Assembly (NCBI GenBank): GCA_039803205.1
Contig: JBDRYB010000001.1
Location: 139,413-203,412, forward strand
Length of the DNA: 64,000 bases
Reading direction: 5' to 3'
DNA from: a candidate division WOR-3 bacterium
GTDB taxonomy: Bacteria; Hydrothermota; Hydrothermia; JBDRYB01
In this document: positions 307 through 57,895 of the stretch, one piece after another
Layout of the letters: each line of letters opens with the position of its first letter
Position numbering within the stretch: position 1 is the first letter of the stretch
Notes under the pieces: model-generated
Seen by the model: only the letters and a program-made list of their open reading frames with translations
What the model was told of the DNA's origin: nothing
Databases searched by the model: none
Translations under genes and position numbers: made by a program

Positions 307-1527
307 ATGTTGATGAGTCTATTCATAATATCCGCGTGGATGGCGTCCTTGCCCGATGGTACATCGGGTTGTTGCGGCGATAAGGGTCATAAGAGCGGAG
401 GAGCGAGGCCAGCCTTCTACACCCGAATAACCCTTAGAGGGAACTACATCCAGGCTTCGGCGGGCCTCAGGTTCACCCCCTCAGGCACCCTGAATCTCAC
501 GGGGCTTCCGGATGGGTCTGGCGCTTATGTCGCGAAGGCATACCTGATATACTCGGTAATCGCCTCTTCATCGGCGCCAGCCATGCAAATAGATGGCACT
601 CCGGTTAGCGGCCAGCTCGTTGGCACAGCCCCTTCCCCCTGCTGGTCAGACCCAAACATATACACATATATAGCCGATGTGACCAGCATTGTTAGGGCCA
701 AGGGCGACGGCGTCTATACCCTCTCAGGCTACTATAATCCGGATGGGGATCCGCCTCCTGGCGGGACGGATGGCGCTACCCTTGTCGCTATATACTGCGA
801 GCGTGATTATGCGGGAACCCCTCCAAGGGATATAGTCATATACCTCGGCGCTTATAGCCTGACTGATGGCGAGGAATGCGATACCTGGGGAGACATAACG
901 GATCTGGATACTCTCCAGTGGACAACATCCAACTTCAACGCTACCAACCCAGTGACATCCGCCAAGCTAACCCTTCTCTTCGCTGATGGCCAGGATTACT
1001 GGAGCGGGACATGCGGTCAGGAGATAGTCCGTTTCAACGGCCAGACCTTGCGCCAGGGCGCGACGGGCCTTCCGGGCGGGAACGGGAACCTCTACGATGC
1101 TGTTCATGTTGAAAATGCTACATCTCTGATCCCGGGCGGTTCAACCTCAGCGAGCAACTACTTTGAGGTAAAGTGGGACGAGTCAGGCTGTTCCGGTTGC
1201 GTTGATTGTATCACCGCTGTCGGGCAGATACTCATGGTCAGCTCCACCAACCCTGAGACATTTGACTGCCTCCCGCTTGAAACAGAAGAGGGCTGGGTTG
1301 ATAAGCCTCCGCTTTCGGTTAAGGGCACCGAGGTCATCCTAAGCCTGCCTTTCCCCATGTGGGGGGAGCTGGAGGTCTATTCTCCGACCGGGCAAAGGGT
1401 AAAGACCCTATCCTGGGGCAAGCTGGAATCGGGGCAGTGGAACCTGAGATCACTGGGGCCAGGAATCTACTACATCATCCTGAGGACAGAGGGCTTCGGG
1501 GCATCAGCGAAGGTGGTCGTAAGGTAG
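307..1527 (+). CDS. Secreted DUF3344-like beta-sandwich protein with T9SS-like CTD
   Basis: Short hydrophobic N-terminus; motifs AYLIYS and DGATLVAIY shared with 25654; CTD VYSPTGQRV..PGIYYIIL..KVVVR. Confidence 0.65.
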   Translation: MLMSLFIISAWMASLPDGTSGCCGDKGHKSGGARPAFYTRITLRGNYIQASAGLRFTPSGTLNLTGLPDGSGAYVAKAYLIYSVIASSSAPAMQIDGTPVSGQLVGTAPSPCWSDPNIYTYIADVTSIVRAKGDGVYTLSGYYNPDGDPPPGGTDGATLVAIYCERDYAGTPPRDIVIYLGAYSLTDGEECDTWGDITDLDTLQWTTSNFNATNPVTSAKLTLLFADGQDYWSGTCGQEIVRFNGQTLRQGATGLPGGNGNLYDAVHVENATSLIPGGSTSASNYFEVKWDESGCSGCVDCITAVGQILMVSSTNPETFDCLPLETEEGWVDKPPLSVKGTEVILSLPFPMWGELEVYSPTGQRVKTLSWGKLESGQWNLRSLGPGIYYIILRTEGFGASAKVVVR

Positions 1528-1528
1528 A

Positions 1529-1870
1529 CTATTCCTCGTATTCGGCGCCCTGACGCCCGTTTTCCCAGACCACGACCCTGATGAGACCGGGATAGATCGG
1601 CTTGAGCCTCTCGTAGATGTATCTGGCGATGAGCTCAGCGGAAGGGTTTTCCATGAGATCGTTCAGGAGCCTGTGATCCGGCAAGATCTCCCTCAGCTTG
1701 GCCCTCATTTCAGCGAAATCGTGCGCAATTCCGCTCTCAGCAAGCTCATTAGCCTTTACGAAAACCTCAACCTCGTAGTTGTGCCCGTGGAGAGCCTCGC
1801 ACTTGCCCTTATAGCTGGGCAAGTAATGCGCGGCCGAGAATTCCTCTTTCAGTCTTAGAACCCAGGGCAT
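1529..1870 (-). CDS. queD: 6-carboxy-5,6,7,8-tetrahydropterin synthase
   Basis: FSAAH, C-x3-HGHNY, DH..LND, NPSAE motifs. Confidence 0.92.
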   Translation of the reverse strand: MPWVLRLKEEFSAAHYLPSYKGKCEALHGHNYEVEVFVKANELAESGIAHDFAEMRAKLREILPDHRLLNDLMENPSAELIARYIYERLKPIYPGLIRVVVWENGRQGAEYEE

Positions 1871-1888: not shown

Positions 1889-2566
1889 CTACTTTATCTC
1901 GTAATCATAGAGCCTCGCTGTAGGGATTACCTCGGAGTCCCCGTTCTCGTCCCTCGCTACGATGCCCGTTCCTGGTGAGACCCAGGAATAGGTCTTTATG
2001 GCGGCTATGAGCGTATCCCTGCTGTTCTTGAATATGGTATCCTCGTAGTGGATCACAAAGGAGGGATCAAAGCTCCCCGCAGGAACAGAAAGGGAAACCG
2101 AATCCTCAACCCGGCCCCATATGCTCAGGATCACGACATCGGTGGAATCAAACCAGGGCGGCAAGTTAATACCGGAGATGCTGTCCTCCCCGACCTTCCA
2201 CACCTGGCCCTTGGTGAGGTATTCCGGCATGAGAACCCCTTCAACCGTCATCTCTATGATCTGAAATGTGAATGTGTATACCATGTTCAGATTGCTATCC
2301 GCGTAGTAGACTATCGTGGTGTCCTTGTTCCCCATCAGGTAACCGAAGACAGCAAAAGCGGGGTAGCCATTGCATGTTGTGTCATAGAGAACCCTTGTGG
2401 TGTCAAATTTCCCGGGATCAGCGGCATCCTGGTATATCCACCAGTTCCCGACAGCGAGGGGGACGGACCGCTTAGGTTCCGGCGGAGGAGGCTCCTCCTT
2501 TTTGCCACTGCATGCTGTAAAAAGGGCCAGGGATACAAAACACGCCTTCTTGTAAAACCCCTTCAT
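1889..2566 (-). CDS. Lipoprotein with PLAVGNWW-Y and VPAGSF motifs
   Basis: Lipobox LFTA-C after a basic n-region; domain related to 26823. Confidence 0.7.
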   Translation of the reverse strand: MKGFYKKACFVSLALFTACSGKKEEPPPPEPKRSVPLAVGNWWIYQDAADPGKFDTTRVLYDTTCNGYPAFAVFGYLMGNKDTTIVYYADSNLNMVYTFTFQIIEMTVEGVLMPEYLTKGQVWKVGEDSISGINLPPWFDSTDVVILSIWGRVEDSVSLSVPAGSFDPSFVIHYEDTIFKNSRDTLIAAIKTYSWVSPGTGIVARDENGDSEVIPTARLYDYEIK

Positions 2567-2567
2567 A

Positions 2568-3110
2568 TCATTCCAAACCCGATGTGATGGCCAAGGTCAG
2601 ATGGTCGTAGTGCTTCCTGACGAGCTCCATGTTGTGATCGGAAACAGCGTATTCAGGCTTTGCCTTGGCCTCCATCTCCGCGAGCTCCTTTTCCATTTGG
2701 GCCTTGGTCTCAGGGGGCATCCCGGGAAGGTCCTTCGCCATCTCGGCCCTCATCTCCTCAATCGCTTTCTCCATAGCGCATGCAGAGTATGTCGCGGTTA
2801 TCGCACCGACGATCTTGAGAAACTCCGCTGATGATCTGAAACCCAGCTCCTTTACGGCCTTTTTCTGGCTAGGGGTAAGCTGGACCGAAGCAAAAGCGGT
2901 ATAGGGGTCCTTGAGGAGTTGTTCTGGGTCCATTCCCTTCTCAATTTCTCTCATCAGCTTGTTTATGCCGGAGTAGTTGTCAATAAATACGGTTATATCG
3001 TCCTCCGTAAGCTGATACGCCCTTATGTCCTCAGCTGTGACCTTTTCCTCTCTGGCACAGCCCGCAAGTAGCGCTAGGCCAATCAATCCTGCTCCTGCTA
3101 TTCTCAGCAT
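2568..3110 (-). CDS. Helical lipoprotein, unknown function
   Basis: Start re-assigned to ATG 3110 (GGAGG upstream); lipobox LLAG-C. Confidence 0.7.
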   Translation of the reverse strand: MLRIAGAGLIGLALLAGCAREEKVTAEDIRAYQLTEDDITVFIDNYSGINKLMREIEKGMDPEQLLKDPYTAFASVQLTPSQKKAVKELGFRSSAEFLKIVGAITATYSACAMEKAIEEMRAEMAKDLPGMPPETKAQMEKELAEMEAKAKPEYAVSDHNMELVRKHYDHLTLAITSGLE

Positions 3111-4982: not shown

Positions 4983-6533
4983 ATGAAGGCATTGAAAAGG
5001 TTTTTGCTCCCTGTTGCAGCTCTTGTTATAGGCCTGGCCTCTGGATACGCTATAAGGGCCGAGGCCGCGGAGACCCAGACCCCAACCCTTAAGCAGATGC
5101 TGGACCTTATGGACGCGACCCTCAAGTATATATCAGAGTATTATGTTGAGCCAATTGATAAGGCTGAGCTGGTCCAATCTGCCCTCAAGGGAATGCTTTC
5201 ATCCCTCGATCCTTACTCGGAGTTCATGACGCCGCAGGACAAGGAGCAGCTGGATGAAGAGACGCAAGGCGAATACTCCGGCATAGGAATGCAGGTAGGC
5301 CTGAGAGATGGCTGGCCCACGGTTATAGCGCCATTTGACGGTTCTCCAGCGCAGAGGATGGGTCTCAGACCAGGTGACAAAATAGTTGAGATAGAGGGTG
5401 TGAGCACCTACGATATGAGCTTGAATGAGGTGGTTAAGAGACTCAGGGGTCCACAGGGCACAAATGTAACGATAAAGGTCCTGAAACCCGGAGTGAATGA
5501 CCCGGTTGAGGTGACATTGACCAGGGAAAAGATAAAGATACATCCTGTTCCCTACTATGACATCCTGGAGGGAAACATAGGGTATATAAAGATGACCTCT
5601 TTTTCCGCGGATGCCGCGGGGGAGCTTTCGGCCATAATAGATACCCTGAACTCGCGGGGCATGAAGGGCCTCATCCTTGACCTCAGGGGCAACCCAGGGG
5701 GGCTTCTCAGGGAGGCTGTTGATGTTTCGGATGTGTTTCTCTCCAAGAACTCCCTTATCGTCTCAACAAAGGGCCGAGGCACAGAGGATGTGATAAACTA
5801 CTTCGCTCAGAGACCTGAACGCCTAGCGCTTGAGACCCCGATGGTGGTCCTGGTTGATCAGGGTTCAGCAAGCGCCTCCGAGATAGTGGCGGGCGCGCTT
5901 CAAGACTGGGATAGGGCCCTCATCATAGGAGACACGACCTTCGGGAAGGGGCTCGTTCAAAGGGTATTCCCTTTGAGCGGGGACTACGCCATACGACTCA
6001 CCACCTCCAGATACTACACCCCTTCCGGAAGATGCATAAATAAGGTGACAAGGCTTGGCGGCAAAGAGACAAAGGATACCTCAAATTTGGTATTCTACAC
6101 GAGACGCTTTGAGAGGGAGGTCAGGGGCTCCGGCGGCATAGTTCCGGATGTGGTAATAGAGCCTGAGAAGACATACAGCCTCACAGCGAAGGCCGCATCC
6201 GATGGAGCGGTGTTCGCCTTTGCGGTGGATTACACCAACAAGCACAAAACCCCTCCCGCATCAGGCAAGATAAGCCTCACGAGCGCTGATATGGCTGATT
6301 TCAGAAAATTCCTCGCCGGGAGAAAGATAACCTTTACGGAGTGCGAGTGGGAGGAGGCTGAGCCCCAGCTTAAATACTGGCTTGAGCAGGACATAGCCGA
6401 GAAATATTGGGGAATGAAGGGGCGCTATCGGCAGTCCTTGGTTGGCGATCCGGTTGTCCAGGAGGCAATAGAAAGGCTGAGGAGCTCAAAGAAGACAGAC
6501 GACCTCTTTCTCACGGCCGGGTCCGGAAAATAA
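4983..6533 (+). CDS. ctpA: S41A carboxy-terminal processing protease with PDZ domain
   Basis: LDPYS, GIG, DLRGNPGGLL, SASASEIVAGALQD, TFGKGLVQ; start at ATG 4983. Confidence 0.9.
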   Translation: MKALKRFLLPVAALVIGLASGYAIRAEAAETQTPTLKQMLDLMDATLKYISEYYVEPIDKAELVQSALKGMLSSLDPYSEFMTPQDKEQLDEETQGEYSGIGMQVGLRDGWPTVIAPFDGSPAQRMGLRPGDKIVEIEGVSTYDMSLNEVVKRLRGPQGTNVTIKVLKPGVNDPVEVTLTREKIKIHPVPYYDILEGNIGYIKMTSFSADAAGELSAIIDTLNSRGMKGLILDLRGNPGGLLREAVDVSDVFLSKNSLIVSTKGRGTEDVINYFAQRPERLALETPMVVLVDQGSASASEIVAGALQDWDRALIIGDTTFGKGLVQRVFPLSGDYAIRLTTSRYYTPSGRCINKVTRLGGKETKDTSNLVFYTRRFEREVRGSGGIVPDVVIEPEKTYSLTAKAASDGAVFAFAVDYTNKHKTPPASGKISLTSADMADFRKFLAGRKITFTECEWEEAEPQLKYWLEQDIAEKYWGMKGRYRQSLVGDPVVQEAIERLRSSKKTDDLFLTAGSGK

Positions 6534-9016: not shown

Positions 9017-10456
9017 CTACCTCGTTATAACCAACTTCTTAACCCGCCAGATGTTCCCAGCGCTCAATCTGAGGAAATAGACCCCTGGATTGGATTTTGG
9101 AGAAAGATGTAGCTCGTGTGAACCCGGGCCAAGTTGCCCTGAGAACAACCCTTCGGCGAGCCTTCCATCGGACGAATAGAGGCTTATCTCAACCCGTGAT
9201 TCCTCATGGAGAGTGAGGGAGACCAGGGTGCTACCTCGGCAAGGGTTGGGCTCCGGGCCAAAAAGAACAGGCTCTTGGCGGGCAATCTCCTCGACGCCAG
9301 AGCTCTTTGATTGCATTAGCCTCATCATCCAATCCCCATATGTGTAGTTTGTCCAGCCGAGGTTGCTGAGGAAATACCAGCTCCTGCCATCCGTTGGCGG
9401 ATCGAAATCACACCCCACGCCAGGAGCCTCCGGGGTATCCGGTTGCCAGTGAGCGACGAGCCATATGTCCTGGGTTGATGGGAGATATATGGGCGGGTTT
9501 ATGGAGAACTCAGCCCAATCGCCTATGAAATTGTTTCCGTGCAGGTTGTATGTGATAAAGAGGGGATTGACTGTGTCGGGGAGGCCGCCCAGGTTCCGAC
9601 AAACCATCACATAGTCAAAGGATGTGCATGTGCTCACGAATATCCTGCCTTTTGTTATGTAAAGGGGAGGGCTTATTGTTGGGGTGAAACGGACTGCCAT
9701 CTTGTTGTTGTAGTAGTCAGCAGAGGGGATCATGAACTGATCCACTATGCCCTGGTCGTATATGATCTCGTATGTGACCCTGAAATCCTCCCTCAGTGTG
9801 TCGTTAGTTGGATAGAAGTCCTGGCTCAGGGCCGTTATGAGCTCAGCCGTGTATGTGCCCGTGTCCGACGGGGTCCACTGAGTTGCCAACTGCACCGCCT
9901 TCTGGGAGTCAGGCATGATGGGGGATGTGGTTGTATTGCCCGAATAGACCAAGCTTCCCCCGGGGGCGTAGATGTTGAGCCTCAAGGGTATCCCTTCGGT
10001 ATATGAGCCCTTGTTTCTAACTACAACGATAGGTTGAATGGGTATGTTGACGGAGTTCTCATAGTATGGCCAGAAGACATCCTCAGCCTGGGCATCGTGA
10101 TAACACCTCACATATATGAGAGCGGTGTCATCTCCGCCATAGCTGTCTCCGGATAGCTCGGTCCAGGCGTATGCCTTGTATGTGCCGAAAGCAGGGGGCG
10201 TCCAATTCGGTGAGAATGTTATGTCTATGTAGCCTCCTGGCTGAAGGTTGCTCACGCTTGAGGAGGATTGATATATGTTCTGGCCTCCGGAGCTATCAAT
10301 CTTGAAATACACGGGGAAAGATGCTGGCACATCCCCATAGTTCCTGAACCTTGCCTGGACCGGATACGGATTCCCCAGCTGGGCATACTGGCCCGGGGAA
10401 AGTATCCTCTCACAGCCCACATCGGGCGCTGAAAAAAGAACTATCCAAATCATCAT
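9017..10456 (-). CDS. Secreted protein with two CARDB-like Ig domains and T9SS-like CTD
   Basis: Repeated V-N-G..WTP..G.Y....D....ND units; PNP..YSSDGRL..GVYFLRL..KKL; SD GGAGGT before ATG 10456. Confidence 0.75.
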   Translation of the reverse strand: MMIWIVLFSAPDVGCERILSPGQYAQLGNPYPVQARFRNYGDVPASFPVYFKIDSSGGQNIYQSSSSVSNLQPGGYIDITFSPNWTPPAFGTYKAYAWTELSGDSYGGDDTALIYVRCYHDAQAEDVFWPYYENSVNIPIQPIVVVRNKGSYTEGIPLRLNIYAPGGSLVYSGNTTTSPIMPDSQKAVQLATQWTPSDTGTYTAELITALSQDFYPTNDTLREDFRVTYEIIYDQGIVDQFMIPSADYYNNKMAVRFTPTISPPLYITKGRIFVSTCTSFDYVMVCRNLGGLPDTVNPLFITYNLHGNNFIGDWAEFSINPPIYLPSTQDIWLVAHWQPDTPEAPGVGCDFDPPTDGRSWYFLSNLGWTNYTYGDWMMRLMQSKSSGVEEIARQEPVLFGPEPNPCRGSTLVSLTLHEESRVEISLYSSDGRLAEGLFSGQLGPGSHELHLSPKSNPGVYFLRLSAGNIWRVKKLVITR

Positions 10457-10526: not shown

Positions 10527-12053
10527 TCAGAATCTCAGTATCTTCACGCTATAGGTTCCTCCCGGATGCCTTAGTAGGGCTATGAAAACCCCTCCGGTCT
10601 CAGCTTTGGGGGAAAAGCTATAGCTTCCCCCTTCCAGAACGCCATTGTAGATGTTTCGAACGAGCCTACCGCCCGTGTCATAAAGCGAAAGGGTTATCTC
10701 AAGGCTGGATGGCAGAAAGAGGTATAGGCCGTTTCCTTGGGGCCTGAATTCCAAGTTGGGGCGCCCTTTTACTTCACCAGTGCTCAAAACCTGGCCGCAC
10801 TCAGTGTTGTCCCCGGGGTCATCAAGCGCAAAGAAGGAATATCCGCTGGCATCCGGATGGGTTCCGACCACGATCTCGGCGCATCCATCATCATCTATAT
10901 CAGCGGGAACCGGCGAGTGAACATCCTCGGAGATGGGTTTTTTCCAGAGCAGAGAGCCGTCCCCCGCTCTCAAGCAATAAAGGGTATCGGGGTTAGCGCC
11001 CACATTCGGGACCAGGACCTCAAGCCCACCAACCCCATCCACATCAACGAGGGAAAGAGGGCAGTGAACGGGCTTTGCGGTCGTGAATTCCCATATTTTG
11101 ACCCCGTTTCTGTCCAGGCAATAGACCCTCTTGTCATAGCTCGCTGTTATGACCTCAGGGTAACCATCCCCATCGCAATCCCCGATAGCAGAGGAGGTTA
11201 TTATTATGTCGCCGGCTGTGAAGCTCCACTTCTGGGCTCCATCCGAACCCGCCAGGCAATAGAGCTTTCGGTCCTGAGAGCCTATTACAACCTCCACTCC
11301 TCCATCCTTATCCAGATCCGCAATCGCTGGAGAGCCATCAATCTGGCCCGTGGTCGCGAACTCCCACCTCCTTGTCCCGTCTGAGCCCGAAAGGCAATAG
11401 ACCTTACCATCGTAGCTCCCAAAAACGACCTCCATCATCCCGTCCCCATCGCAATCAGCAACGGCCGGGGATGAGCGCACTGAGCCGCCTGACCTGAATC
11501 TCCATTTTTTCGTGCCGTCTCCTGCTCTGAGGCAATAGAGAACGCTGTCCATGCTCCCTATGAGCACTTCAATCTCCCCGTCCCCGTCGCAATCGGCAAG
11601 GGCCGGAGAGGAATGGGTCTCGGCCCCTGGCGTGGTCTCGGATGACCACTGGAGAACGCCGGAAGCGCCATCAATGCAGAGTATGTATCCATAACCCCCG
11701 ACAACCACCTCCATCTGAGGGTCACCATCCAGCTGGGCTATGGCGGAGGATGAGCTCAGCTGAGCGCTATAAACATAGTATTTCCATTCCTCCGCACCTG
11801 TTGTCCCATCAAAGCAATGCAGATACCTGTCGTAGCTCAGGGCGAGAACCTCGGATTTTCCGTCATTGTCAACATCCCCCACAGCGGAGAACTGCCACTC
11901 AACCCAAGCGTTCGTGGGAAACCTCCACTTTACCACGGGTTCCGTGCTCATCGCGCCCTTCATGGTTTGAAGGGAATGGTGAGCTGGCTCTCCTCCCCAC
12001 ATGGGCCAGGTGCCGTAAACTGCCCCCAGAAGGGCCATTATTAAGTAAGGCAT
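10527..12053 (-). CDS. Secreted FG-GAP/PQQ-like beta-propeller with CTD (class A)
   Basis: SSPA-x-ADxDGDG..EV..GS.D...YCL..DG..KW.F repeats; start ATG 12053 with GGAGG. Confidence 0.85.
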   Translation of the reverse strand: MPYLIMALLGAVYGTWPMWGGEPAHHSLQTMKGAMSTEPVVKWRFPTNAWVEWQFSAVGDVDNDGKSEVLALSYDRYLHCFDGTTGAEEWKYYVYSAQLSSSSAIAQLDGDPQMEVVVGGYGYILCIDGASGVLQWSSETTPGAETHSSPALADCDGDGEIEVLIGSMDSVLYCLRAGDGTKKWRFRSGGSVRSSPAVADCDGDGMMEVVFGSYDGKVYCLSGSDGTRRWEFATTGQIDGSPAIADLDKDGGVEVVIGSQDRKLYCLAGSDGAQKWSFTAGDIIITSSAIGDCDGDGYPEVITASYDKRVYCLDRNGVKIWEFTTAKPVHCPLSLVDVDGVGGLEVLVPNVGANPDTLYCLRAGDGSLLWKKPISEDVHSPVPADIDDDGCAEIVVGTHPDASGYSFFALDDPGDNTECGQVLSTGEVKGRPNLEFRPQGNGLYLFLPSSLEITLSLYDTGGRLVRNIYNGVLEGGSYSFSPKAETGGVFIALLRHPGGTYSVKILRF

Positions 12054-43342: not shown

Positions 43343-43398
43343 AAAAATAAGGCCAGCCGGAGCAGAAACGGGAGGTGCAAGGATTCTCCGGCTGGCCT
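43343..43398 (-). terminator. Hairpin with GCACCUCC loop (hp3)
   Basis: 13-bp stem AGGCCAGCCGGAG/CUCCGGCUGGCCU followed by UAUUUUU. Confidence 0.75.
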
Positions 43399-43402
43399 GG
43401 TC

Positions 43403-45027: not shown

Positions 45028-46530
45028 TCATCTTACGATGGCTTTCCCTTTGTATGTTGTAACCTGCCACAGGTATACCCCTTGTTCAAGCCCTATACGG
45101 GTTTCGCCCTTCCTGAGTTCCCCTGAGTATACAAGTCTTCCATCTGGTTTATACATCCTTATACTCACCTCCTCTGAGGCGACGAAAACCAATCCACCCG
45201 GGACTGCGTGGCAGGTTATTCCTGGTTTCTGCACCGTGATGCGGTCTTTTAGGTTTAGAGGCGGGCACATATCTGTTATCGTTAAACTAGGAGCAGTTAT
45301 AGATAGGTTTGGAACTGAGATATCTGGAGAGCAAGGCGCCGCCCCTGATACCGAGAATACGCTTATGGAAGGCGTTGAGACGATCGGATTACAAGGGATA
45401 GCGCATCCCGGGTAGTTCCCTGAGGTGTCCAAACTAAAGGCAAAAATGTCAAAGACCCCATCGCCATGTCGGCCTGCTACCGCAAACCCTCCATCATTAT
45501 TTTGGATCACAGAAGATGCGTATTCCCAAATCCCTCCCCCTACGGTTCTACCCCAGGCGACCGAAGCATCTGAGTTCAGCTTGATGAGAAGGGCATCATC
45601 ATTGCCAGCCCCAAAACTCCCTGTGGAGCCGGCCAAAACATAGCCTCCGTCAGCGGTCTGAATCAGGGAATAAGCGTGGTCAAAGGAGGACCCTCCGTAT
45701 GCCTTTGCCCAACTCAGAGAACCATCTGGGTTCAGTTTTAGGAGAAGAGCCTTGGGATAAGTGCCGAAGTTGTAGGATTCCCCTGCTACCATGAGTCCGC
45801 CGTCTGCTGTTTGAGCTATAGAGTATGCGAAATCATTGTAGTCTCCTGTGCTAAATGCCCTCCCCCAGGCGGGCGAGCCGTCCGAGTTCAGCTTCAGAAC
45901 AAAAATATCAAAACCAGTTAAAGAAAAAACCCCGTGGCCAGTCACAGCATATCCGCCGTCCGATGTCTGGATTATGGAGTAAGCAGTGTCAACATAATTA
46001 GTGGCTCCGAAAGTCCTCGCCCAGGCAATTGAGCCGTCAGGGTTCAACCTGAGGATAAGATCACTGCCACTTATATCACCGCCGAAGCTAATTGTGTTGC
46101 CAGCAAGAGCGTAGCCACCGTCTGATGTCTGAGTTAAAGAATGGGCCTCGTCAGAGCTTGTTCCTCCGTATGTCCTGGCCCAGGAGAGGGAACCATCGGG
46201 TTCCAATTTGATGACGAGGAAATCAGAAGCTCCCGCGCCAAAGCTCCTTGTATATCCCCCAACCAGATACCCTTGGTCTGAGGTTTGGATTACCGAGAAA
46301 GCCCTATCATCATCCGGTCCCCCGTATGTCCTGGCCCAGGAGAGGGAACCATCGGGCCCCAGCTTGATGACGAGGAAATCACAATTACCTGCCCCAAAGC
46401 TACTAGTATATCCTGCGATGACATAGCCGCCTTCCGCAGTCGGAGCTATAGAGTAGGCCAAATCCTGACTAGCTCCTCCATAAGTCTTGGCAAAGAGGCT
46501 CTGAAGTATCGTTAGGATTAACCATGTCAT
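45028..46530 (-). CDS. Secreted class B beta-propeller
   Basis: WARTYGG repeats; ends KGKAIVR. Confidence 0.8.
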   Translation of the reverse strand: MTWLILTILQSLFAKTYGGASQDLAYSIAPTAEGGYVIAGYTSSFGAGNCDFLVIKLGPDGSLSWARTYGGPDDDRAFSVIQTSDQGYLVGGYTRSFGAGASDFLVIKLEPDGSLSWARTYGGTSSDEAHSLTQTSDGGYALAGNTISFGGDISGSDLILRLNPDGSIAWARTFGATNYVDTAYSIIQTSDGGYAVTGHGVFSLTGFDIFVLKLNSDGSPAWGRAFSTGDYNDFAYSIAQTADGGLMVAGESYNFGTYPKALLLKLNPDGSLSWAKAYGGSSFDHAYSLIQTADGGYVLAGSTGSFGAGNDDALLIKLNSDASVAWGRTVGGGIWEYASSVIQNNDGGFAVAGRHGDGVFDIFAFSLDTSGNYPGCAIPCNPIVSTPSISVFSVSGAAPCSPDISVPNLSITAPSLTITDMCPPLNLKDRITVQKPGITCHAVPGGLVFVASEEVSIRMYKPDGRLVYSGELRKGETRIGLEQGVYLWQVTTYKGKAIVR

Positions 46531-46564: not shown

Positions 46565-48034
46565 TTACTTCACGATCCCTTTTCCTCTGTATGAACCTGC
46601 CCTCCATATGTAGACTCCCCTTCTGAGATCTATTCTGGTAGAACCCTTACGAATCCTTCCAAAATAAACAAGTCTGCCATCATAGGCATAGAGATCGATC
46701 TCGGATTCTATTACGGATCTGAAAACCAGGCCACCCGGAACTGAGAAGCAGGTAATCGGAGAGAGGGGGGGTTCTGTCTCCCTATCATAAAGAGAAGGGC
46801 AAAGGTCATTGGATACCAGAGAAAGGCTAATAGGACTCATAACCGGATTCCCCACCGAGATAGCCCATGCAGCTGTGGGAACCTGTGGAGAGGAGATATT
46901 TAATGTGGGTTCCATGATGATGGGGTTGCAATCCTGGACACAGCCCTGATAGTCACCGTTAACTCCTATTCTCATAACGATAGCCCGGCTAGATGTGGCA
47001 GAGATGGGGTAACCGCAAATGATGAATCCGGCGGCATTCTGACGGATGGAATATGCCCTTTCTTCGCCTCCGGCTCCAAAAGTCTTAGCCCATTCCAAGC
47101 TCCCGTCCGAAGCCAGTTTCGCGATAATGAAATCCGTGATACCACTACCGAAGCTCTTAGTCCAGCCCGCTGAGGCACACCCCCCATTATCTACTTGCGT
47201 TACTGACCATCCATACTCGTAGTCCGAACCCCCAAGGGTTTTCGCCCAGATCAAGCTCCCGTCAGAAGAGAGCTTGAGGATGGCCATATCGTAACTGCCA
47301 GCACCGTAGGCATTGGTGAATCCTGTTACATAGAGACTGAGATCAAATCCGATATCAACCCCATGGAACTCTAAGCCGTCAAACACTCTAGCCCATTGGG
47401 GGTTGCCATCCCACTGGAGTTTTAGCACTATCCCACCCTGATCCTTGCGCCCCACCACGATATACCCTCCATCCGAGGTCTTAGTAAGGCTGAAACCGTT
47501 TTCGATACCAGCATCACCGTACTGCTTAGCCCACTGAAGAGAACCTGTAGAGTTCATCTTGATAACGGTGATCTGGGGATCCAAAGCCGCGTCCCAGGTG
47601 TATCCCGCTATTACGAGTCCGTTATCCGGGCTCTCAACCAAACCGAAAGCGTAGTCATAACTATTTGTCCCCCCCACTATCCTTGCCCAGCGGAGCGCCC
47701 CGTCTGATCCGAGCTTTAGGACTATGAGATCATATCCTCCGCCAAAACTGTTGGTATACCCGGCTACACCGAAGTCCCCATCGGAACACTCTATTATTGC
47801 CTCTCCTCTGTCATCTCCTGAATCCCCAAAGACATTAGCCCACTCTACACTCCCGTCTTGGGATAGCTTGAATACCAGGAGGTCCCTAGAACCTCCCCAT
47901 GTGGTCGTGTAATTGCCCACAGCGGCATATCCCCCATCAGCGGTAGGGGTTATCCAATTGACTTCTATATGGGGAGGTCCGTATTCCTTAGCCCAAACCC
48001 CAATTAGGATATCCAGGAAAAACCATCCAAGCAT
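46565..48034 (-). CDS. Secreted class B beta-propeller
   Basis: Same repeats; ends RGKGIVK. Confidence 0.8.
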   Translation of the reverse strand: MLGWFFLDILIGVWAKEYGPPHIEVNWITPTADGGYAAVGNYTTTWGGSRDLLVFKLSQDGSVEWANVFGDSGDDRGEAIIECSDGDFGVAGYTNSFGGGYDLIVLKLGSDGALRWARIVGGTNSYDYAFGLVESPDNGLVIAGYTWDAALDPQITVIKMNSTGSLQWAKQYGDAGIENGFSLTKTSDGGYIVVGRKDQGGIVLKLQWDGNPQWARVFDGLEFHGVDIGFDLSLYVTGFTNAYGAGSYDMAILKLSSDGSLIWAKTLGGSDYEYGWSVTQVDNGGCASAGWTKSFGSGITDFIIAKLASDGSLEWAKTFGAGGEERAYSIRQNAAGFIICGYPISATSSRAIVMRIGVNGDYQGCVQDCNPIIMEPTLNISSPQVPTAAWAISVGNPVMSPISLSLVSNDLCPSLYDRETEPPLSPITCFSVPGGLVFRSVIESEIDLYAYDGRLVYFGRIRKGSTRIDLRRGVYIWRAGSYRGKGIVK

Positions 48035-48049: not shown

Positions 48050-49552
48050 TCACCTTACAACTGCTTTACCTTTGTATTGTCCGGATTCCCAAAGATAGAC
48101 TCCCTGGTCCAGGTTTATACGGTTTTCGCCCCTTAGGAGATCACCGCAATAAACGAGCCTCCCATCAGAAGAATATACTCTGAGGCCAGTAGCCATCTGG
48201 CTTATAAAAACGAGACCACCGCTTACAGAAGCGGCTACCACATGGGGCGAGAAATTAAAGGTGTCCTCGCTTGAACCCTCGTAAACAGGGACCGAGGCGC
48301 AGAAATCTGCCTGTGTGGGAGTAACTGGATCGAAGGTAGCGTTATAGTTGTTGGAGGTTATGGATACCGTGGTTGTGGTTATTCCAGGAACATCCTCAAC
48401 GGCTACCACATCGTTCGGGATAAGGGAGGCATCCGACACGCAGTTGGGATATTCCCCGTTTGCCGCTATCTTCATAACAAACATATCCTCATCAGTTGAT
48501 ATACTACCCTTGCCAGCAAAAACCAAGGTCCCGTCCGATGCTTGGATGACATCCCGGAAGTGCCACCATCCAGATGGACTCGCTGGAAACCTCTTTTGCC
48601 ACCTCAATGTCCCGTCCGGCCCTATTCTGAGAGCCACGCCTCCGTTTCCACCCGCCACCACATAGTCACCGCCAGAAAGCTGTATTCCAGAATAACCCCA
48701 CTCATACCCTGAGGTGCCAAAGGATTTCGCCCACTCCAAGGCCCCATCGGAGGCTACCTTCAGAACGAGGATGTCGTTTTGGCCAGCCCCAAAGCTATAT
48801 GTGGTTCCAACGACCAAGAAGCCCCCATCAGAGGTTCCGGTTATGGAATGCCCGGCATCATAATTCGTGCCGCCATAGGTTTTTGCCCAAATTACAGTTC
48901 CATCCGTGCCAACCTTAATCACTATCACATCTCCTTTGGGGTCCCCAAAGCTCTTAGTGTAGCCCGTTATCGCGTAGCCACTGTTATCAACCGCCTTAGC
49001 AACAGAATAGCCATAGTCTTCGCCGCTTCCTCCATAGGCCTTTGTCCAATTTATGCCCCCGCTACTACTGAGTTTCGCGAGCGCGATGTCCCAGTTGTTT
49101 CCGCCGAAGGTACCTGCAACTAGGAAATCGCTAGCCGAACTCTGGATCAGATCCTCGGCATATATGTTGCGATTCGCGAGAGAGTAGGTCTTTATCCACT
49201 GCAAGGATCCGGATGAGCTCACCTTGGCCAAAAGAAAATTCCAATAGAAGAATGGGGATTCTTGCCCGCAAACCAACAAGCTCCCGTCTGAGAGCTGGAG
49301 CACGGATACGGCCCGATGGTTATTCCCGCTCAGCCACCTACACCATTCTCTCGTCCCGTCCTGGCTAAGCTTCAGAAGCATGAGATTCTCAAACCCATTT
49401 GATTCTTCGTATCCTGCTACCGCATATCCGCCATCTGTTGTCTGGATCAATGAAAAGGCCGCTTCGTTCATATACGGGTCCCATCCTTCCCAGCCATATC
49501 CTTTGGACCAAAGAGTCTGGCCCAGCGCAACAAAGATGATTATCCCTGACAT
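48050..49552 (-). CDS. Secreted class B beta-propeller
   Basis: Same repeats; ends KGKAVVR. Confidence 0.8.
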   Translation of the reverse strand: MSGIIIFVALGQTLWSKGYGWEGWDPYMNEAAFSLIQTTDGGYAVAGYEESNGFENLMLLKLSQDGTREWCRWLSGNNHRAVSVLQLSDGSLLVCGQESPFFYWNFLLAKVSSSGSLQWIKTYSLANRNIYAEDLIQSSASDFLVAGTFGGNNWDIALAKLSSSGGINWTKAYGGSGEDYGYSVAKAVDNSGYAITGYTKSFGDPKGDVIVIKVGTDGTVIWAKTYGGTNYDAGHSITGTSDGGFLVVGTTYSFGAGQNDILVLKVASDGALEWAKSFGTSGYEWGYSGIQLSGGDYVVAGGNGGVALRIGPDGTLRWQKRFPASPSGWWHFRDVIQASDGTLVFAGKGSISTDEDMFVMKIAANGEYPNCVSDASLIPNDVVAVEDVPGITTTTVSITSNNYNATFDPVTPTQADFCASVPVYEGSSEDTFNFSPHVVAASVSGGLVFISQMATGLRVYSSDGRLVYCGDLLRGENRINLDQGVYLWESGQYKGKAVVR

Positions 49553-51341: not shown

Positions 51342-51677
51342 CTAGGGTTTATCATCCGGTTCCGGCCTCTCCTGGGTGAACTGGGGCATGAAACCGATCC
51401 TCTTGCCCTCCTCTTCTCCTGGTATCCTTATCTCGCCAAAACGGGCCTCGTATTTCCTTATGTTGTCCTCTATGGTCCGTAGGAGGAGTTTGGCGTGCTG
51501 GGGAGTCATGATGACCCTCGTCTCAACCTTTACCTTCTGCACGCCGGGCACGACACGGCCGAAGTCAAAAACGAACTCCGATGGGCTGTGGGTTATCAGG
51601 ACGAAATTTGAGTATGTCCCATCCCAAGCGTTTTCCGGAAGCTCAATCTGGAGATGCGGAGGGGGCAAATCCTTCAT
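51342..51677 (-). CDS. DUF3467-family protein
   Basis: GTYSN...THS.SEFVFDF, RVIMTPQHAK, YE.RFGEI. Confidence 0.8.
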   Translation of the reverse strand: MKDLPPPHLQIELPENAWDGTYSNFVLITHSPSEFVFDFGRVVPGVQKVKVETRVIMTPQHAKLLLRTIEDNIRKYEARFGEIRIPGEEEGKRIGFMPQFTQERPEPDDKP

Positions 51678-53701
51678 TTTCTCACCACCTTTGTTGAGAG
51701 CAATCCTCTGCCGCCAAGTTTTAACTCCACGATGTAGAGGCCAGCTGGCGCTCTTGAAAGATCAACCGAAACAGAATTGAGTCCGGGCTTTGTTATGGCT
51801 GATTCGCGGCACACGAGCCTTCCGTCAACTGAGTATGCTTTGAGATCCGCGGGAATGCCGCCGCAGGAGACAAATTCAATCCGGAAGATGTTCCTGGTTG
51901 GGGTTGGCCCCACGGATATGATCCTCGTGGCGATGCGATCCGAAGCGCCCTCGTCTATCCCGATGTGGACGATATGCTCGTCTATGATCCAGTTCTCGGG
52001 GTCAAACTGAAGCGTGGTAGGCTTGCCGGGGAGGGTAATTGAGAAGCCCTGGACATCAAGGCTATCCCAAAGGATGACCGTCGTATCAAGGGTGCCGTCC
52101 CTGAACCTCATGGGGACCGGCATCTTGAATGTCGGAACCCCGTAATCGTGGGACTGGGTCTGTTTTATGAGGACGCCGACCTGCCACATCCCTCCTCCTA
52201 TTGAATCCGCTTCCCAACCCACATCGTATTTAGGGTGCCCTGGCCTGTATAGCCACTCGTCAAAAAACCAGCCCAGGCTGAGGCCAGTGAAAGCCTGGTA
52301 TTCCTGGGTGAAGTCCCTCGTGAGCGCGTAGCTCTCAGCGTGGTTGTTCTTATAGTATCTCAAAGCGGCCCAGAAAGCGAGGGTGTCCCCTCCGAGCAGG
52401 TATTCCGTTATCTTCTTGAGGGAGTGAAGGACGCAACCTGCCTTGTCGTATGTCTCAACCGAGAACAGCTCCTCAAGGCTCTGGCCGGGGTTGTATATGG
52501 GAATAGGGGGCCATGTGTAGTATTGGAGGTAGATCCTCATTCTAACCGAATCAATCCAGTATTGATACATGTTAGGCCCCCAATACCAACCCCACCAGAC
52601 AGCCTCAGAGAAGGTGGCAAAGCCCTCGTTCAGCCATATGTCTGGCCATGTGCCGCATGTCACATAGTCCCCCCACCAGTGGTGGGAGAGCTCGTGGGCC
52701 TGGACCCAAATCGTTCTCAGCGAGTCCCCGTATATGCCGAACCCGGTGAATGTATTTGTCTGGTTCTCCATAGCTCCTCCGAGCTCGTCTATCTGGACCT
52801 GGGAGTATTTCTGATCCATGAAGGGATAAACCCCGTAGAGGGCCGAATAGCCCTCCATTGCCCTTGGAAGGAGCTTGTAGTCCAGCTCCGCGGCCGCTGA
52901 ATCAGCGTGGGATACATAGTGAACGATGGGAAGGGTATCGCCGGCCCAGATGAATGTATCCCGAATGGTAGCGTAATCGTAAGCGGCAAAGACTATGAGA
53001 TATGTGGCTATCTGGCGGTCATTGACCCATCTGTATGTCCACCATGTGAAGTTCTGGACTGAGTCCACGAGAACCCCGTTTGCCACAACACGCCAGCCCG
53101 CTGGAACAGTCGCAGTTATCTCAGACCTCGCCTTCTCGGAAGGAACATCAACGCAAGGAAACCAGTGCCTAGCTCCCCAGGGCTCATCATCAACATAGCA
53201 TATCGTATCCCCTATTGTGAGGCCGCCGGAGGAGATTATGCCCTCAGGATGAGTCGGGGGGCCGTGGTAAAAGACCGATGCCGTGTCTATCCTGCCAGGG
53301 GATGGGTTCGGTATAACGATGTTCAGGATCCTCCCGGTGTCGGAGCCTGAGAGGGACCAAATAGCCGGAGCGCCATCCAGAAGAACCGAATCCACAACAA
53401 GTCCGAGGTTTGGCGTCGCGCTCATTGAATCAACGAAGTTTAGCCTAAGGAAAACGGAATCCTCGGTTATCTGGAACTCCACATCACACCTGGCGTTCAT
53501 TATGCTATCGCCAACCGTGTCTATGGTCAAGTTTATGCTGTATTTGAGGATATCCCAGGGCAAGTCTGGCGGCAGGGTGTCAAGCTCCATTATGCCGAAG
53601 CGCTCCCTAAGGCGCAGTTTCTCATCCATGGCCCGGATCTCGTCTAGGCTTGGGATCCCATCAGGCCATCCGAGCGCAAAGAACAAAATAGCGTTCATCA
53701 T
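51674..53701 (-). CDS. Secreted M1-family aminopeptidase with CTD
   Basis: GAMENQT, HELSHHWWG, WLNEGFA, YDKAG; CTD YSVDGRL..GLYIV..KVVRK; ATG 53701. Confidence 0.9.
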   Translation of the reverse strand: MMNAILFFALGWPDGIPSLDEIRAMDEKLRLRERFGIMELDTLPPDLPWDILKYSINLTIDTVGDSIMNARCDVEFQITEDSVFLRLNFVDSMSATPNLGLVVDSVLLDGAPAIWSLSGSDTGRILNIVIPNPSPGRIDTASVFYHGPPTHPEGIISSGGLTIGDTICYVDDEPWGARHWFPCVDVPSEKARSEITATVPAGWRVVANGVLVDSVQNFTWWTYRWVNDRQIATYLIVFAAYDYATIRDTFIWAGDTLPIVHYVSHADSAAAELDYKLLPRAMEGYSALYGVYPFMDQKYSQVQIDELGGAMENQTNTFTGFGIYGDSLRTIWVQAHELSHHWWGDYVTCGTWPDIWLNEGFATFSEAVWWGWYWGPNMYQYWIDSVRMRIYLQYYTWPPIPIYNPGQSLEELFSVETYDKAGCVLHSLKKITEYLLGGDTLAFWAALRYYKNNHAESYALTRDFTQEYQAFTGLSLGWFFDEWLYRPGHPKYDVGWEADSIGGGMWQVGVLIKQTQSHDYGVPTFKMPVPMRFRDGTLDTTVILWDSLDVQGFSITLPGKPTTLQFDPENWIIDEHIVHIGIDEGASDRIATRIISVGPTPTRNIFRIEFVSCGGIPADLKAYSVDGRLVCRESAITKPGLNSVSVDLSRAPAGLYIVELKLGGRGLLSTKVVRK

Positions 53702-55925: not shown

Positions 55926-55927
55926 GC

Positions 55928-57895
55928 ATGGAGATACTTCTGAGCCTGTTGGCCTTTGAGAGCATACATCACGCGCAGATGGCCGAACACGAAGCCTTGC
56001 CATACATACCACCAACCCAAACCATTCCACTGTCCGGAAAGCATCAGGTTGACAGGACGGTCTACGGGTTCTATCCGTATTGGATGGGGACCGCTTATCG
56101 GAGCCTTGACTACGATCTCCTCTCGCACATAGCCTGGTTCGCTGTTTCCGTGAACTCAACTGGAAACATAGGCACATGGAACAACTGGCCTGGAGGATGG
56201 GCAGAGCTCGTTGATAGCGCGCACGCCCATGGGATCAGGCTTCACATGACCGCAACCTGCTTTGATCCTGATGTAATAAGGAGCATAATAACGAGCTACA
56301 AGGCTTACTGCTCCCATGTCCTGGTTGAGGCCGCGCTTTCCGGCGGCGCTGATGGCATAAACATAGACTTTGAATTCCCATACTCCTCGGATTCCCTTCT
56401 ATTTCTGGATTTCATCAGAATACTCTCGGATTCCTGTAGGGCGAGAGGGCTTGAGCTTTGCCTTTGTGTTGGCGCGGTTAACTGGAACGGGAGGTTCCTG
56501 GTTGACCGGCTCGCCCCCCTCCTTGACGGGATATTCATAATGGGCTACGGATACTTTTGGTCAGGCTCCCCAACAACCGGGCCCGTCTCTCCACTCACAG
56601 GCTACACCTATAATGTGACGAACTCAATAACCTACTATGTCAACTACGCTGGCGGCCCTGAGAAGATAATAATAGGATTGCCTTACTACGGCTACAAATG
56701 GAAGGCAAATGGCCCGGACCCAGGGGATTCAACCCTTGCAACCGGGACTGCTATGACATACGCCAACGCGGCGGATGAGTCCGAGACATACGGCCTTCTC
56801 TGGCACTCCTATTCCCAGACCCCGTGGTATAGATACTACACAACCGCCTGGTATCAGACATGGTTTGACAACGATTCCTCTCTGGACCTCAAGTATGACC
56901 TTGCTATAGAAAGAGGGCTTCAGGGGGTTGGGATATGGGCACTTGGCTACGATGGGGATAGGCCGGAGCTCTGGGAGGAGCTGGAGGAGCACTTCTTCGT
57001 GGCTCGGATAAACGCGAGGGTGGGGCCTGATTCCTGCCTAATAACATGCTCAGTTGATCCCTCGGATTCGGTTGTCTGGCAGGGGAAGGTCGGCCCAGGG
57101 CCCTCCGAGGTCACCGTGAGGAGGCGAGCCACATACGATATAGCGTTTCAATCAAGCCCAAGATACAACTCAGCCTTTGCGGAAAACATAGCTGTGAGGA
57201 GGGACACAGCCATAGGAGAGATAACGCTTTCCGCCAGGGACACCGAGTATGTCATAGACGATCTCGATCCCGAGTGCTTTTTCTCAGGCGCATGGAGGCC
57301 ATCTGAATACATATCAGGCTACTGGGGGCTGGGATACAGGTGGGCAAAGGGGGGAGCGCCGGCCAGCGTCCTCTTCATCCCGGAGGCTATAACCCATGGG
57401 GTCTATCGGGTCTTTCTGAGATACACATCCGCGCCCAACAGGGCCGAAGATGTTCCGGTCAGGGTTCAGTATGCCGGCGGGGACACCGTTATCACGGTTG
57501 ATCAGACATCTGGCGGCGGAGATTGGTTTTATCTTGGAGAATTTGAACTCGCGCCGGGCAGTTATGTCCAGGTGAGCAACGCCTTCTCCGATACAACAAA
57601 GGTGGTTATCGCTGATGCTGTGTGTTTCAGTAGGGCTGGCGCTGGCACGGTTGACGCTGGCGAGGAGGCCCCGTTCTCCGCGGCATACGACCCGAAAACC
57701 AGGGCCTTTTTAGCGCAAAGCCCATTACCAGCGGCTCTCTCGCTCTACGATGTCTCAGGGAGGCTGATAAGACAAGAGGGGTTCTCGGGAAAGCTCGTTT
57801 TGGGCATGGGGGATCTTCCAAAAGGGATATATTTCGCCTGGATGAGGGCTCATCAGCCCGAGCGCTCTCTCGTGCTCAAGTGCGTGGTGCGGTAG
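55928..57895 (+). CDS. Secreted GH18 hydrolase with golvesin/CBM-like domain and CTD
   Basis: DGINIDFE, IMGY, GLPYYG, GVGIWALGYD; IDD..W..S..G.Y, NRA..V, VDQ..W..LG.F, VIADAV. Confidence 0.85.
   Translation: MEILLSLLAFESIHHAQMAEHEALPYIPPTQTIPLSGKHQVDRTVYGFYPYWMGTAYRSLDYDLLSHIAWFAVSVNSTGNIGTWNNWPGGWAELVDSAHAHGIRLHMTATCFDPDVIRSIITSYKAYCSHVLVEAALSGGADGINIDFEFPYSSDSLLFLDFIRILSDSCRARGLELCLCVGAVNWNGRFLVDRLAPLLDGIFIMGYGYFWSGSPTTGPVSPLTGYTYNVTNSITYYVNYAGGPEKIIIGLPYYGYKWKANGPDPGDSTLATGTAMTYANAADESETYGLLWHSYSQTPWYRYYTTAWYQTWFDNDSSLDLKYDLAIERGLQGVGIWALGYDGDRPELWEELEEHFFVARINARVGPDSCLITCSVDPSDSVVWQGKVGPGPSEVTVRRRATYDIAFQSSPRYNSAFAENIAVRRDTAIGEITLSARDTEYVIDDLDPECFFSGAWRPSEYISGYWGLGYRWAKGGAPASVLFIPEAITHGVYRVFLRYTSAPNRAEDVPVRVQYAGGDTVITVDQTSGGGDWFYLGEFELAPGSYVQVSNAFSDTTKVVIADAVCFSRAGAGTVDAGEEAPFSAAYDPKTRAFLAQSPLPAALSLYDVSGRLIRQEGFSGKLVLGMGDLPKGIYFAWMRAHQPERSLVLKCVVR

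Follow-up and report, generated by a model that had tools for sequence, protein, structure and literature searches.

In the stretch of DNA analysed here (64,000 nucleotides from the genome of a candidate division WOR-3 bacterium, hereafter the window, always taken at its full length), 23 genes encode proteins that start with a methionine followed by a short hydrophobic run and that have no lysine or arginine (K/R) ahead of it. A preliminary description of the window had reported about 20 exported proteins with such N-termini, and the observation not only holds in the window but extends beyond it: the short uncharged leaders are confirmed as real, genome-wide and far from chance. We consider it likely that they are truncated signals of the Sec/signal peptidase I (SPI) type, that have lost their basic n-region along with a portion of the hydrophobic core. 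Sec-dependent export, the site of cleavage and any connection with a loss of SRP (signal recognition particle) are what we infer from the sequences; the leader pattern with its fixed starts, the kinds of cargo, the spread over lineages and which machinery genes are present or missing are what they show. Protein targeting in the class to which this bacterium belongs probably works in an unusual way.

The assembly that holds the window measures 2.32 Mb in 50 contigs and is 96% complete. It encodes SprA_N, a marker of the type IX translocon, and we defined our test set by the type IX C-terminal sorting domain (CTD) because this domain marks export independently of the N-terminus. The CTD model TIGR04183 has 125 matches in this genome vs none in 14 control genomes; with a hidden Markov model (HMM) built from the genome’s own CTDs, a CTD-like tail is found on 236 of 2045 greedily called genes (~11%). 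The set taken with this HMM comprised 235 CTD open reading frames (ORFs); 203 were left once 6 ORFs lying at the edge of a contig and 26 that lacked a hydrophobic window or a start codon had been removed. The set based on TIGR04183 only went from 125 to 96 after the removal of 29 matches (7 at an edge, 19 without core or start, and 3 with the core too far in). Proteins are called K/R-less when the sequence up to and including the start of the hydrophobic core holds no Lys or Arg, a definition that also excludes the Tat twin-arginine motif. Short leaders were counted after the lipobox candidates had been set aside; these form a separate set of 71, and a lipobox signal is not a property of the short leaders.

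The positively charged n-region, a defining feature of Sec/SPI signals, is lacking in 165 of the 203 CTD proteins, and in 164 of the 203 the core begins no more than 3 residues from the methionine. With TIGR04183 only, the K/R-less fraction is 69/96, and among the TonB-type receptors (recognized as Plug proteins) it is 6/7. CTD proteins from other phyla (Marinimicrobia, Zixibacteria, and Eisenbacteria; 40 ORFs, 33 analysable) carry K/R in 30 of 33 cases, and all three K/R-less ones have GTG starts without a strong Shine–Dalgarno (SD) site.

Such a result could arise if the starts were misplaced, that is, if the true codons lay upstream or were non-canonical, or a stop were read through, the signals being canonical. 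The preliminary description had itself named upstream starts as something that would refute its proposal, while stating that most starts are fixed. An SD-like site of 4–6 nt lies 5–10 nt upstream in 15 of the 23 window genes; the other 8 have none, one gene (41782-43380) has an ambiguous start, and our start picker resolves ties toward the downstream codon, which may slightly inflate the K/R-less count where several starts are available. Against this, 103 of the 129 CTD starts with an SD site of at least 5 nt are K/R-less. Of the 162 K/R-less CTD leaders on which we computed leader anatomy, 62 have an in-frame stop within 5 codons upstream and 105 within 10, and a methionine with K/R within four residues occurs in the 20 residues before that stop in 13 only. 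The nearest upstream stops are TAA (76), TGA (59) and TAG (27), and since all three also terminate genes in this genome, recoding cannot rescue a longer signal. The same script, moreover, recovers canonical signals in 66 of the 71 lipobox candidates and in the other phyla. We therefore give hardly any credence to misplaced starts; the upstream canonical signals did not materialize, given the nearby in-frame stops and the SD sites.

As to anatomy, 93 of the 162 leaders have Ile, Leu or Phe as their second residue. The median distance from the methionine to the first polar or charged residue past the core start is 10 residues (interquartile range 8–12), compared with 15 for the K/R signals of the same genome and 20 in the other phyla, and the median length of the hydrophobic run is 9 residues as opposed to 12 and 14, respectively. 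A run of 9 falls within the ~7–15 hydrophobic residues expected of a Sec/SPI core on an extracytoplasmic protein. The first charged residue follows the methionine at a median of 15 residues, and both lengths fall short of the ~19 or more hydrophobic residues of an uncleaved signal-anchor helix. Compensation by a more hydrophobic core was considered and not seen, the peak 8-residue hydropathy being 2.69 vs 2.85–3.24 in the comparison sets. The preliminary description had many leaders ending just before a glutamine, which is true of about half: a first Gln falls at residues 8–17 in 84 of 162, and the other 78 have no such Gln. Among the first polar residues past the core, Gln is the most frequent (53/162). 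The residue before the first Gln is Ser, Gly or Ala in 59/84 vs 129/599 in the core background, position −3 is Leu in 46/84, and the resulting L-x-[SGA] looks like an SPI site.

The 23 window genes with short K/R-less leaders are the following (window coordinates; SD-like sequences and stops are given relative to the start codon):

307..1527, plus strand: exported protein whose CTD is weak (TIGR04183, 22.5 bits, window 1333-1524); leader MLMSLFIISAW, no K/R; AGGAGG 7 nt upstream; ATG 9 codons past an in-frame stop.
9017..10453, minus strand: CTD protein (Por_Secre_tail at residues 421-495); leader MIWIVLFSAP (MMIWIV if the start is 10456); GGAGG 5 nt upstream.
10527..12053, minus strand: FG-GAP/PQQ-like propeller with CTD, by Pfam and paralogue register; leader MPYLIMALLGAVYG, preceding a conserved TWPMWGG; GGAGG 8 nt upstream.
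12067..13602, minus strand: propeller paralogue, by Pfam; leader MLCFTITVCLGAVYG; AGGAGG 8 nt upstream.
13794..15362, minus strand: DUF5122-repeat CTD protein, by Pfam; leader MTSAFALAWILTSQ; ATG 5 codons past an in-frame stop; no strong SD.
15373..16881, minus strand: propeller with CTD; leader MMILLLAQVHG, preceding IWPMWGG; AGGAGG 8 nt upstream; ATG 10 codons past a stop.
17020..18546, minus strand: propeller paralogue; leader MFYFSIAVCMGADYG; ATG 5 codons past the stop of the upstream gene; no strong SD.
18562..20112, minus strand: propeller paralogue; leader MFSFVICIGAVYG; AGGAGG 8 nt upstream; ATG 1 codon past an in-frame stop.
21825..23651, minus strand: M1 peptidase with CTD (Peptidase_M1 and Por_Secre_tail); leader MTGLFLAFLS, then Q; ATG 3 codons past an in-frame stop.
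25654..26766, plus strand: DUF3344 protein, by Pfam; leader MMMWFFLSVPFGG; AGGAGG upstream; in-frame stop 9 codons upstream.
26823..27794, plus strand: CTD protein (Por_Secre_tail); leader MFAMIWICLV, then Q; AGGAGG 6 nt upstream.
28459..29304, minus strand: PD40 (TolB-like repeat) protein without CTD; leader MLFLLLAG; ATG 1 codon past the stop of the upstream gene.
29308..30108, minus strand: protein without Pfam match; leader MMMPLFIFSVLPFW; AGGAGG 10 nt upstream.
32660..34213, minus strand: TonB-dependent-receptor-like barrel (weak TonB_dep_Rec_b-barrel match); leader MGMFLIACAIAG (MFLIAC if the start is 34207); in-frame stop 2-4 codons upstream.
34525..36366, plus strand: TPR/YfiO-like protein; leader MLWEIFCLGILSQQ, with Glu at position 4 and no K/R; no SD seen.
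39779..41749, plus strand: TonB-dependent receptor; 10-residue leader MLLAFLLSTT, running straight into CarboxypepD_reg (Pfam models begin at residues 10-12, followed by Plug and barrel); ATG 6 codons past a stop.
41782..43308, minus strand: propeller paralogue with an ambiguous start; leader by paralogy MTAAGYIMVILSQVYG (the script chose a TTG further upstream, at 43380; the paralogue register favours 43308).
43403..44923, minus strand: DUF5122-repeat CTD protein, by Pfam; leader MISAYIIATTLMG, then QSLWAKTYGG; AGGAG 10 nt upstream; ATG 1 codon past a stop.
45028..46530, minus strand: DUF5122-repeat CTD protein, by paralogue register; leader MTWLILTIL, then QSLFAKTYGG; GGAGG 7 nt upstream.
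46565..48034, minus strand: DUF5122-repeat CTD protein; leader MLGWFFLDILIG; AGGAGG 6 nt upstream; ATG 5 codons past a stop.
48050..49552, minus strand: DUF5122-repeat CTD protein; leader MSGIIIFVALG, then QTLWSKGYG; AGGAG 8 nt upstream; ATG 1 codon past a stop.
51674..53698, minus strand: M1 peptidase with CTD (TIGR04183 match at C1:191092-191319 in contig coordinates); leader MNAILFFALGWP or MMNAIL.
55928..57895, plus strand: GH18 glycosidase with CTD (Glyco_hydro_18); leader MEILLSLLAF, with Glu at position 2; ATG 3 codons past a stop.

By Pfam, the cargo in the window thus consists of FG-GAP/PQQ-like propellers, DUF5122-repeat proteins, two M1 peptidases, the GH18 enzyme, the PD40 protein, the TPR/YfiO-like protein, and two TonB-type barrels. 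An in-frame stop lies 1–10 codons upstream of the ATG in many of these genes. Two of them (25654..26766 and 34525..36366) are below the hydrophobic-window threshold, and their leaders were read by eye. All ten leaders quoted in the preliminary description are present at the genes named there, one of them miscopied (it reads MMILLLAQ, with three leucines and not four).

What speaks for truncation is that long- and short-leader paralogues share one mature register, that the cargo classes are those known elsewhere as Sec substrates, that a small residue precedes the Gln, and that SecA, SecY and LepB are present. Among the TonB receptors, four short-leader paralogues share the first CarboxypepD_reg strand with one canonical paralogue; in the latter, the strand runs from about residue 26, behind a signal of ~25 residues, vs residues 10–12 behind the short leaders. 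The LWAKxYG-type proteins (n = 33) have 7–16 residues ahead of their motif and are all K/R-less, and the WPMWG-type propellers (n = 20) have 12–18 residues ahead of theirs, with 18 of 20 K/R-less. The propeller 15373..16881 and its paralogues have a conserved stretch of ~20 residues, WPMWGGEPxHxSLQTMKGAM, after the leader and ahead of the first propeller blade. We modelled the product of 15373..16881 with AlphaFold2 from a 6-sequence alignment (mean predicted local distance difference test score, pLDDT, 81.6); the propeller and the C-terminal beta-sandwich (the CTD) are both good.

Several points weigh against truncated Sec/SPI signals. By the rules established in Escherichia coli, the leaders are weak in all respects, being shorter, uncharged and not more hydrophobic. 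A leader of 7–10 residues is too short to span the bilayer as a helix, and the geometry of cleavage by LepB is without explanation. The WPMWG propellers have a conserved V-x-G that fits the −3/−1 rule at least as well as the Gln site, so the exact cleavage sites are uncertain, and in the AlphaFold2 model residues 1-34, including the WPMWGG segment, have a pLDDT below 50 and do not fix the end of the leader. The tie rule of the start picker (see above) is a further point against, and WOR-3 families that lack SRP and retain K/R, to which we return below, leave the link of the leaders to SRP loss unproven.

The leaders might then not be cleaved Sec signals at all, and serve either as uncleaved tags or as signals for another route across the inner membrane, for instance by YidC only or by an undescribed translocon. 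Their weakness relative to working signals elsewhere and their inferred inability to span the bilayer would suit this idea, and the classical signals on lipoproteins of the same cell are compatible with two separate routes. However, paralogues with classical and with short leaders join the same mature register, as truncation of one kind of signal predicts, and the small residue before Gln (59/84) suits the demands of signal peptidase I. In every case studied, moreover, outer-membrane barrels and type IX cargo are Sec substrates, and no candidate for an alternative machinery was identified. A non-Sec route therefore seems to us improbable, and truncated Sec/SPI signals remain the preferred reading.

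Another way to explain weak leaders is decay: signals eroding under relaxed selection in expanded, partly redundant paralogues, with many of the proteins poorly exported or not at all. Beyond the weakness by E. coli criteria, decay has in its favour that the CTD proteins are unevenly distributed over families, as 98 of the 201 that were clustered belong to two expanded ones, namely the FG-GAP/PQQ-like propellers and the DUF5122-repeat proteins. Clustering of these 201 by passenger domain nevertheless gives 65 clusters, of which 49 are mostly K/R-less, and 31 of the 40 singletons are K/R-less as well; the two expanded paralogue families are thus not the explanation. Decay is also at odds with the TonB receptors (6/7 K/R-less), with the conserved motif of the leaders themselves, with ORFs that are intact over ~500 residues, and with a pattern common to the genus and its sister family f2. 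We hold it to be very improbable.

The lipoproteins and the CtpA-like protease of the window behave differently. The preliminary description had these proteins keep their basic n-regions, and they do so in every case, with MK or MR n-regions:

1889..2566, minus strand: lipoprotein, canonical signal MKGFYKKACFVSLALFTAC.
2568..3110, minus strand: lipoprotein, canonical signal MLRIAGAGLIGLALLAGC; start set by eye.
23732..24355, plus strand: lipoprotein, canonical signal MKRFAIISSLAIAGTGC.
31614..32657, minus strand: lipoprotein, canonical signal MRRIKYMSAVLLALSC; GGAGG 5 nt upstream.
4983..6533, plus strand: S41 protease (CtpA-like), canonical signal MKALKRFLLPVAALVIGLASGYAIRAEA.

Genome-wide, the 5 lipobox candidates out of 71 that the same script calls K/R-less include at least three that look like mis-picked starts, because an M..R/K lies just upstream. 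The contrast within one genome between classical lipoproteins and other exported proteins holds, and it is the most striking point of the preliminary description.

That description had also proposed a minimal export signal specific to the lineage, which fits the K/R-less fractions among CTD proteins of related genomes. In the same genus, 4 of 5 CTD proteins are K/R-less (by eye). In the sister family f2, the count is 9/9 in 400 kb of genome G038 and 1/1 in another set, with two short leaders and one canonical signal as further cases. For other families of the class, three sets gave 22/46 (60 ORFs taken, the rest being at edges or without core, and with five f4 cases that are one orthologue in five genomes), 3/8, and 2/6 (loci with 1.5-kb flanks, which miss the starts of long ORFs). 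Other WOR-3 classes gave 7/19, 6/35 and 1/14 (by eye). Although kin are not independent and the samples are small, the gradient is clear: the trait peaks in the genus itself and in f2, takes middle values in the remaining families of the class, and is low in WOR-3 outside the class. We take the trait to be inherited because it is seen in the same genus, in f2 and in 49 of the 65 passenger-domain clusters.

The preliminary description had reasoned that such signals imply an altered SecA, SRP or signal peptidase, an interpretation that our data support in part. For SRP this turned out otherwise, as it is not altered but was not found. The Ffh M domain (PF02978) is detected neither in the window genome nor in any of 64 species genomes of the class (44 of high quality), and the FtsY model TIGR00064, which also scores the Ffh GTPase, in none of the same 64 at E ≤ 1e-8; both match in 14/14 control genomes. 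SRP RNA (RF00169) is found in none of the 12 class genomes in a 61-genome sample of the phylum, and PF00448 has no real match in 21 genomes, giving only P-loop scraps of at most 28.5 bits. Searches of the window genome by tblastn with five Ffh and two FtsY sequences from the same phylum, and by nhmmer with four SRP RNAs, found nothing, the best E-values being 0.041, 0.14 and 1.6.

Within the 61-genome sample, Ffh-M, FtsY and SRP RNA travel together. The SRP-plus WOR-3 families (37 of the 61 genomes) have Ffh-M in 34/37, FtsY in 37/37 and SRP RNA in 36/37; the other 24 genomes are the 12 of the class and those of families f13, f19, f23 and f25-f28, and neither Ffh-M nor SRP RNA is found in any of them. 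Families f19, f23 and f27 have one weak SRP-type GTPase below the FtsY cut-off (E 1e-25 to 1e-31), which is perhaps FlhF or else a degenerate FtsY. Assembly gaps were controlled for with YidC (PF02096), found in 60/61 and 20/21 genomes and missing from the window genome alone. Loss of YidC in the window genome as a biological feature was rejected in favour of an assembly gap, given that related genomes have it; absence from a single genome is weak evidence, as this gap shows. In a class without detectable SRP (Ffh, FtsY, and 4.5S RNA), all targeting must run without it.

In Streptococcus mutans, a second YidC, whose long tail binds ribosomes, is reportedly the back-up for SRP. We looked in the SRP-less lineages for a YidC tail that is long, basic and ribosome-binding and saw none: tails are short in SRP-less and SRP-plus groups alike, measuring 8-22 residues in 17 class genomes (the YidC ORF was unusable in 3 of 20 class loci, two without a complete ORF and one, L421, where the longest ORF is not YidC) and 7-31 residues in 6 genomes of other families. 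YidC is single-copy in the class genomes searched.

It is tempting to see an ancestral loss of SRP as the cause, removing a competitor for hydrophobic N-termini and so allowing or favouring minimal uncharged leaders that SecA would read at the ribosome. The absence of all three components throughout the class, set against their near-constant presence in the SRP-plus families, suits this idea, as does the report, in the accessible part of PMC6692507, that E. coli SecA scans the ribosomal tunnel much like SRP. On the other hand, CTD proteins of the SRP-less WOR-3 families outside the class carry K/R in 16 of 18 cases, and those of SRP-plus families in 13 of 17. As a sufficient cause, SRP loss is thus rejected (K/R-less 2/18 vs 4/17), and it does not by itself explain the short leaders, because SRP-less families outside the class retain K/R signals. 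The trait moreover ranges from ~40% to ~100% within the SRP-less class, and neither the YidC tails nor the SecY pore and prlA sites show a compensating change. We regard this causal account as rather unlikely.

In the rest of the export machinery, SecY and LepB look ordinary. SecY (438 aa) aligns end to end with solved SecY chains (E = 1e-125 to 1e-130) and carries the E. coli residue at F67, I82, I86, I187, I191, I278, S282, F286 and I408 (E. coli numbering as we take it). These positions are presumably the pore ring and the classic prlA sites, and a prlA-like SecY was rejected as a cause since those that were placed carry the E. coli residue. LepB is a single S26 peptidase with one N-terminal anchor and an ordinary catalytic region, so that the expectation of an altered signal peptidase was not upheld. 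SecA (1011 aa; L063:196-3231, on contig C32) is present and differs from E. coli SecA by ~90 extra PPXD residues, a ~45-residue Cys-rich insert in NBD2, and the lack of the C-terminal zinc-finger tail. A lack of N-formylation, by which Met-1 would carry an amino group that is free and charged, was rejected as well, Fmt and Def both being encoded. Pyroglutamate formation at an exposed Gln, which the preliminary description noted for Bacteroidota, might occur here too; Gln is enriched after L-x-[SGA], but a papaya-type glutaminyl cyclase (PF05096) was not found in the 96%-complete genome, in a search that did not include the M28-type cyclase.

Taken together, export in this lineage may work as follows. 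The leader consists of the methionine and ~9 hydrophobic residues, in about half of the cases ending in L-x-[S/G/A] before Gln, for a length of ~7-16 residues vs ~20-25 in other phyla. In this genus it would be the default signal for exported proteins other than lipoproteins (type IX cargo, TonB-dependent receptors, and several periplasmic proteins), the classical Lys/Arg signal being kept by lipoproteins and about a fifth of the CTD proteins. The leader would enter SecYEG, driven by SecA, and be removed by LepB, after which the protein would reach its destination in the periplasm or outer membrane, or be passed to the type IX system. If Met stays in place beside a bulky residue 2, an N-terminus without charge could lodge within the lateral gate or bilayer and need not be held at the cytoplasmic face. 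The basic anchor of lipoproteins may persist since Lgt and LspA act on a membrane-retained signal. The absence of SRP may have relaxed or reshaped the constraints on signals, in a permissive and not a sufficient role.

A bolder version can be offered tentatively. A whole class of free-living diderms from hot springs would have lost SRP together with its receptor and RNA, and one lineage inside it might use a two-tier code, with uncharged leaders of about ten residues for SPI cargo and classical basic signals for lipoproteins. The tiers would be read by different targeting steps (e.g., SecA scanning at the ribosome vs post-translational delivery), and the leader would lie half-way in the SecY lateral gate with its uncharged N-terminus buried, a recognition mode not seen in model organisms. 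We would call this possible, without leaning on it.

Some other features of the window deserve mention. Directly 3′ of the GH18 gene, window 57922-58947 (plus strand) encodes a membrane protein (lysyl-phosphatidylglycerol-synthase TM family, PF03706); an effect on the surface charge of the membrane, should it have one, could bear on the dispensable basic n-regions. Two paralogous regulators of ~525 aa without Pfam match (window 20255-21838 and 49682-51253, both plus strand) stand divergently beside the propeller/DUF5122 arrays. A PLD-like protein (window 59485-61299, plus strand) has two PLDc_2 domains, an N-terminal KNGEKNEGEKVEAT-like triple repeat, and a long Lys/Ser/Glu-rich C-terminal region. 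The sequencing runs listed for window 38300-44300 are five hot-spring DNA metagenomes from two studies, two of which are a possible source of the DNA, and there are no RNA runs among those listed.

Textbook models and all secretome predictors build on signals of ~20 residues with a basic n-region and on SRP being universal. If the short leaders serve most exported proteins, what is predicted as the secretome of these abundant hot-spring bacteria is probably far off, and the minimal requirements for recognition by SecA, SecY and LepB need revision. A natural lack of Ffh, FtsY and SRP RNA across a class would be a rare natural experiment on the SRP-free targeting of membrane and secretory proteins. 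Our literature search, which did not extend to supplements, turned up no description of K/R-less or ultra-short signals, be it in WOR-3 or in other organisms, nor of a free-living bacterial lineage that has naturally lost SRP. The accessible portions of PMC12297393, PMC12542636 and PMC12285271 hold nothing on SRP, signal peptides or secretion. From those portions, a WOR-3 isolate is in culture (PMC12285271) and has been placed in the class Hydrothermia (PMC12542636); if it is a member of the class studied here, it would make both questions bench-testable.

How, then, do the leaders compare with known systems? Classical Sec/SPI signals are tripartite (n-h-c). The leaders share with them the N-terminal position on extracytoplasmic proteins, a hydrophobic core followed by a small residue at the putative −1 position, and a genome that encodes SecA, SecY and LepB; they differ in lacking the Lys/Arg n-region (165/203), in a core that starts from residues 2-4, and in their shorter run (9 vs 14) and earlier first polar residue (10 vs 20). 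Charge mutants and prlA (SecY) suppressors of E. coli show that export is possible without charge in the n-region, provided that the core is longer or more hydrophobic or that a prl allele is present. In contrast, the core here is shorter and no more hydrophobic, and SecY is wild-type at the residues placed, in the numbering assumed above.

The Q-rule signals of Bacteroidetes (PMC5837995, PMC10653852, as far as their accessible parts go) resemble the leaders in that Gln is the commonest first polar residue and follows a small residue, and in the type IX CTD cargo. A Q-rule pathway is expected to show Gln at +1 of most SPI substrates together with a glutaminyl cyclase. The leaders are much shorter and uncharged, however, and come without a detected PF05096 cyclase; PMC5837995 states, in the part available, that the rule does not extend to the entire FCB group or to related phyla. 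Life without SRP has its precedents in the laboratory, as the accessible texts describe for surviving mutants of S. mutans (PMC8546722) and for E. coli SRP-suppressor strains (PMC7844537, PMC8299109). Like the class studied here, these have SecYEG, SecA and YidC and lack Ffh and FtsY. They are deletions, though, whereas here the loss is natural, spans all 64 species genomes of the class, and goes with a single-copy YidC with a short tail. The leaders are thus best placed as a variant of the Sec/SPI-type signal, and the apparent lack of SRP in their lineage is unexpected in its own right.

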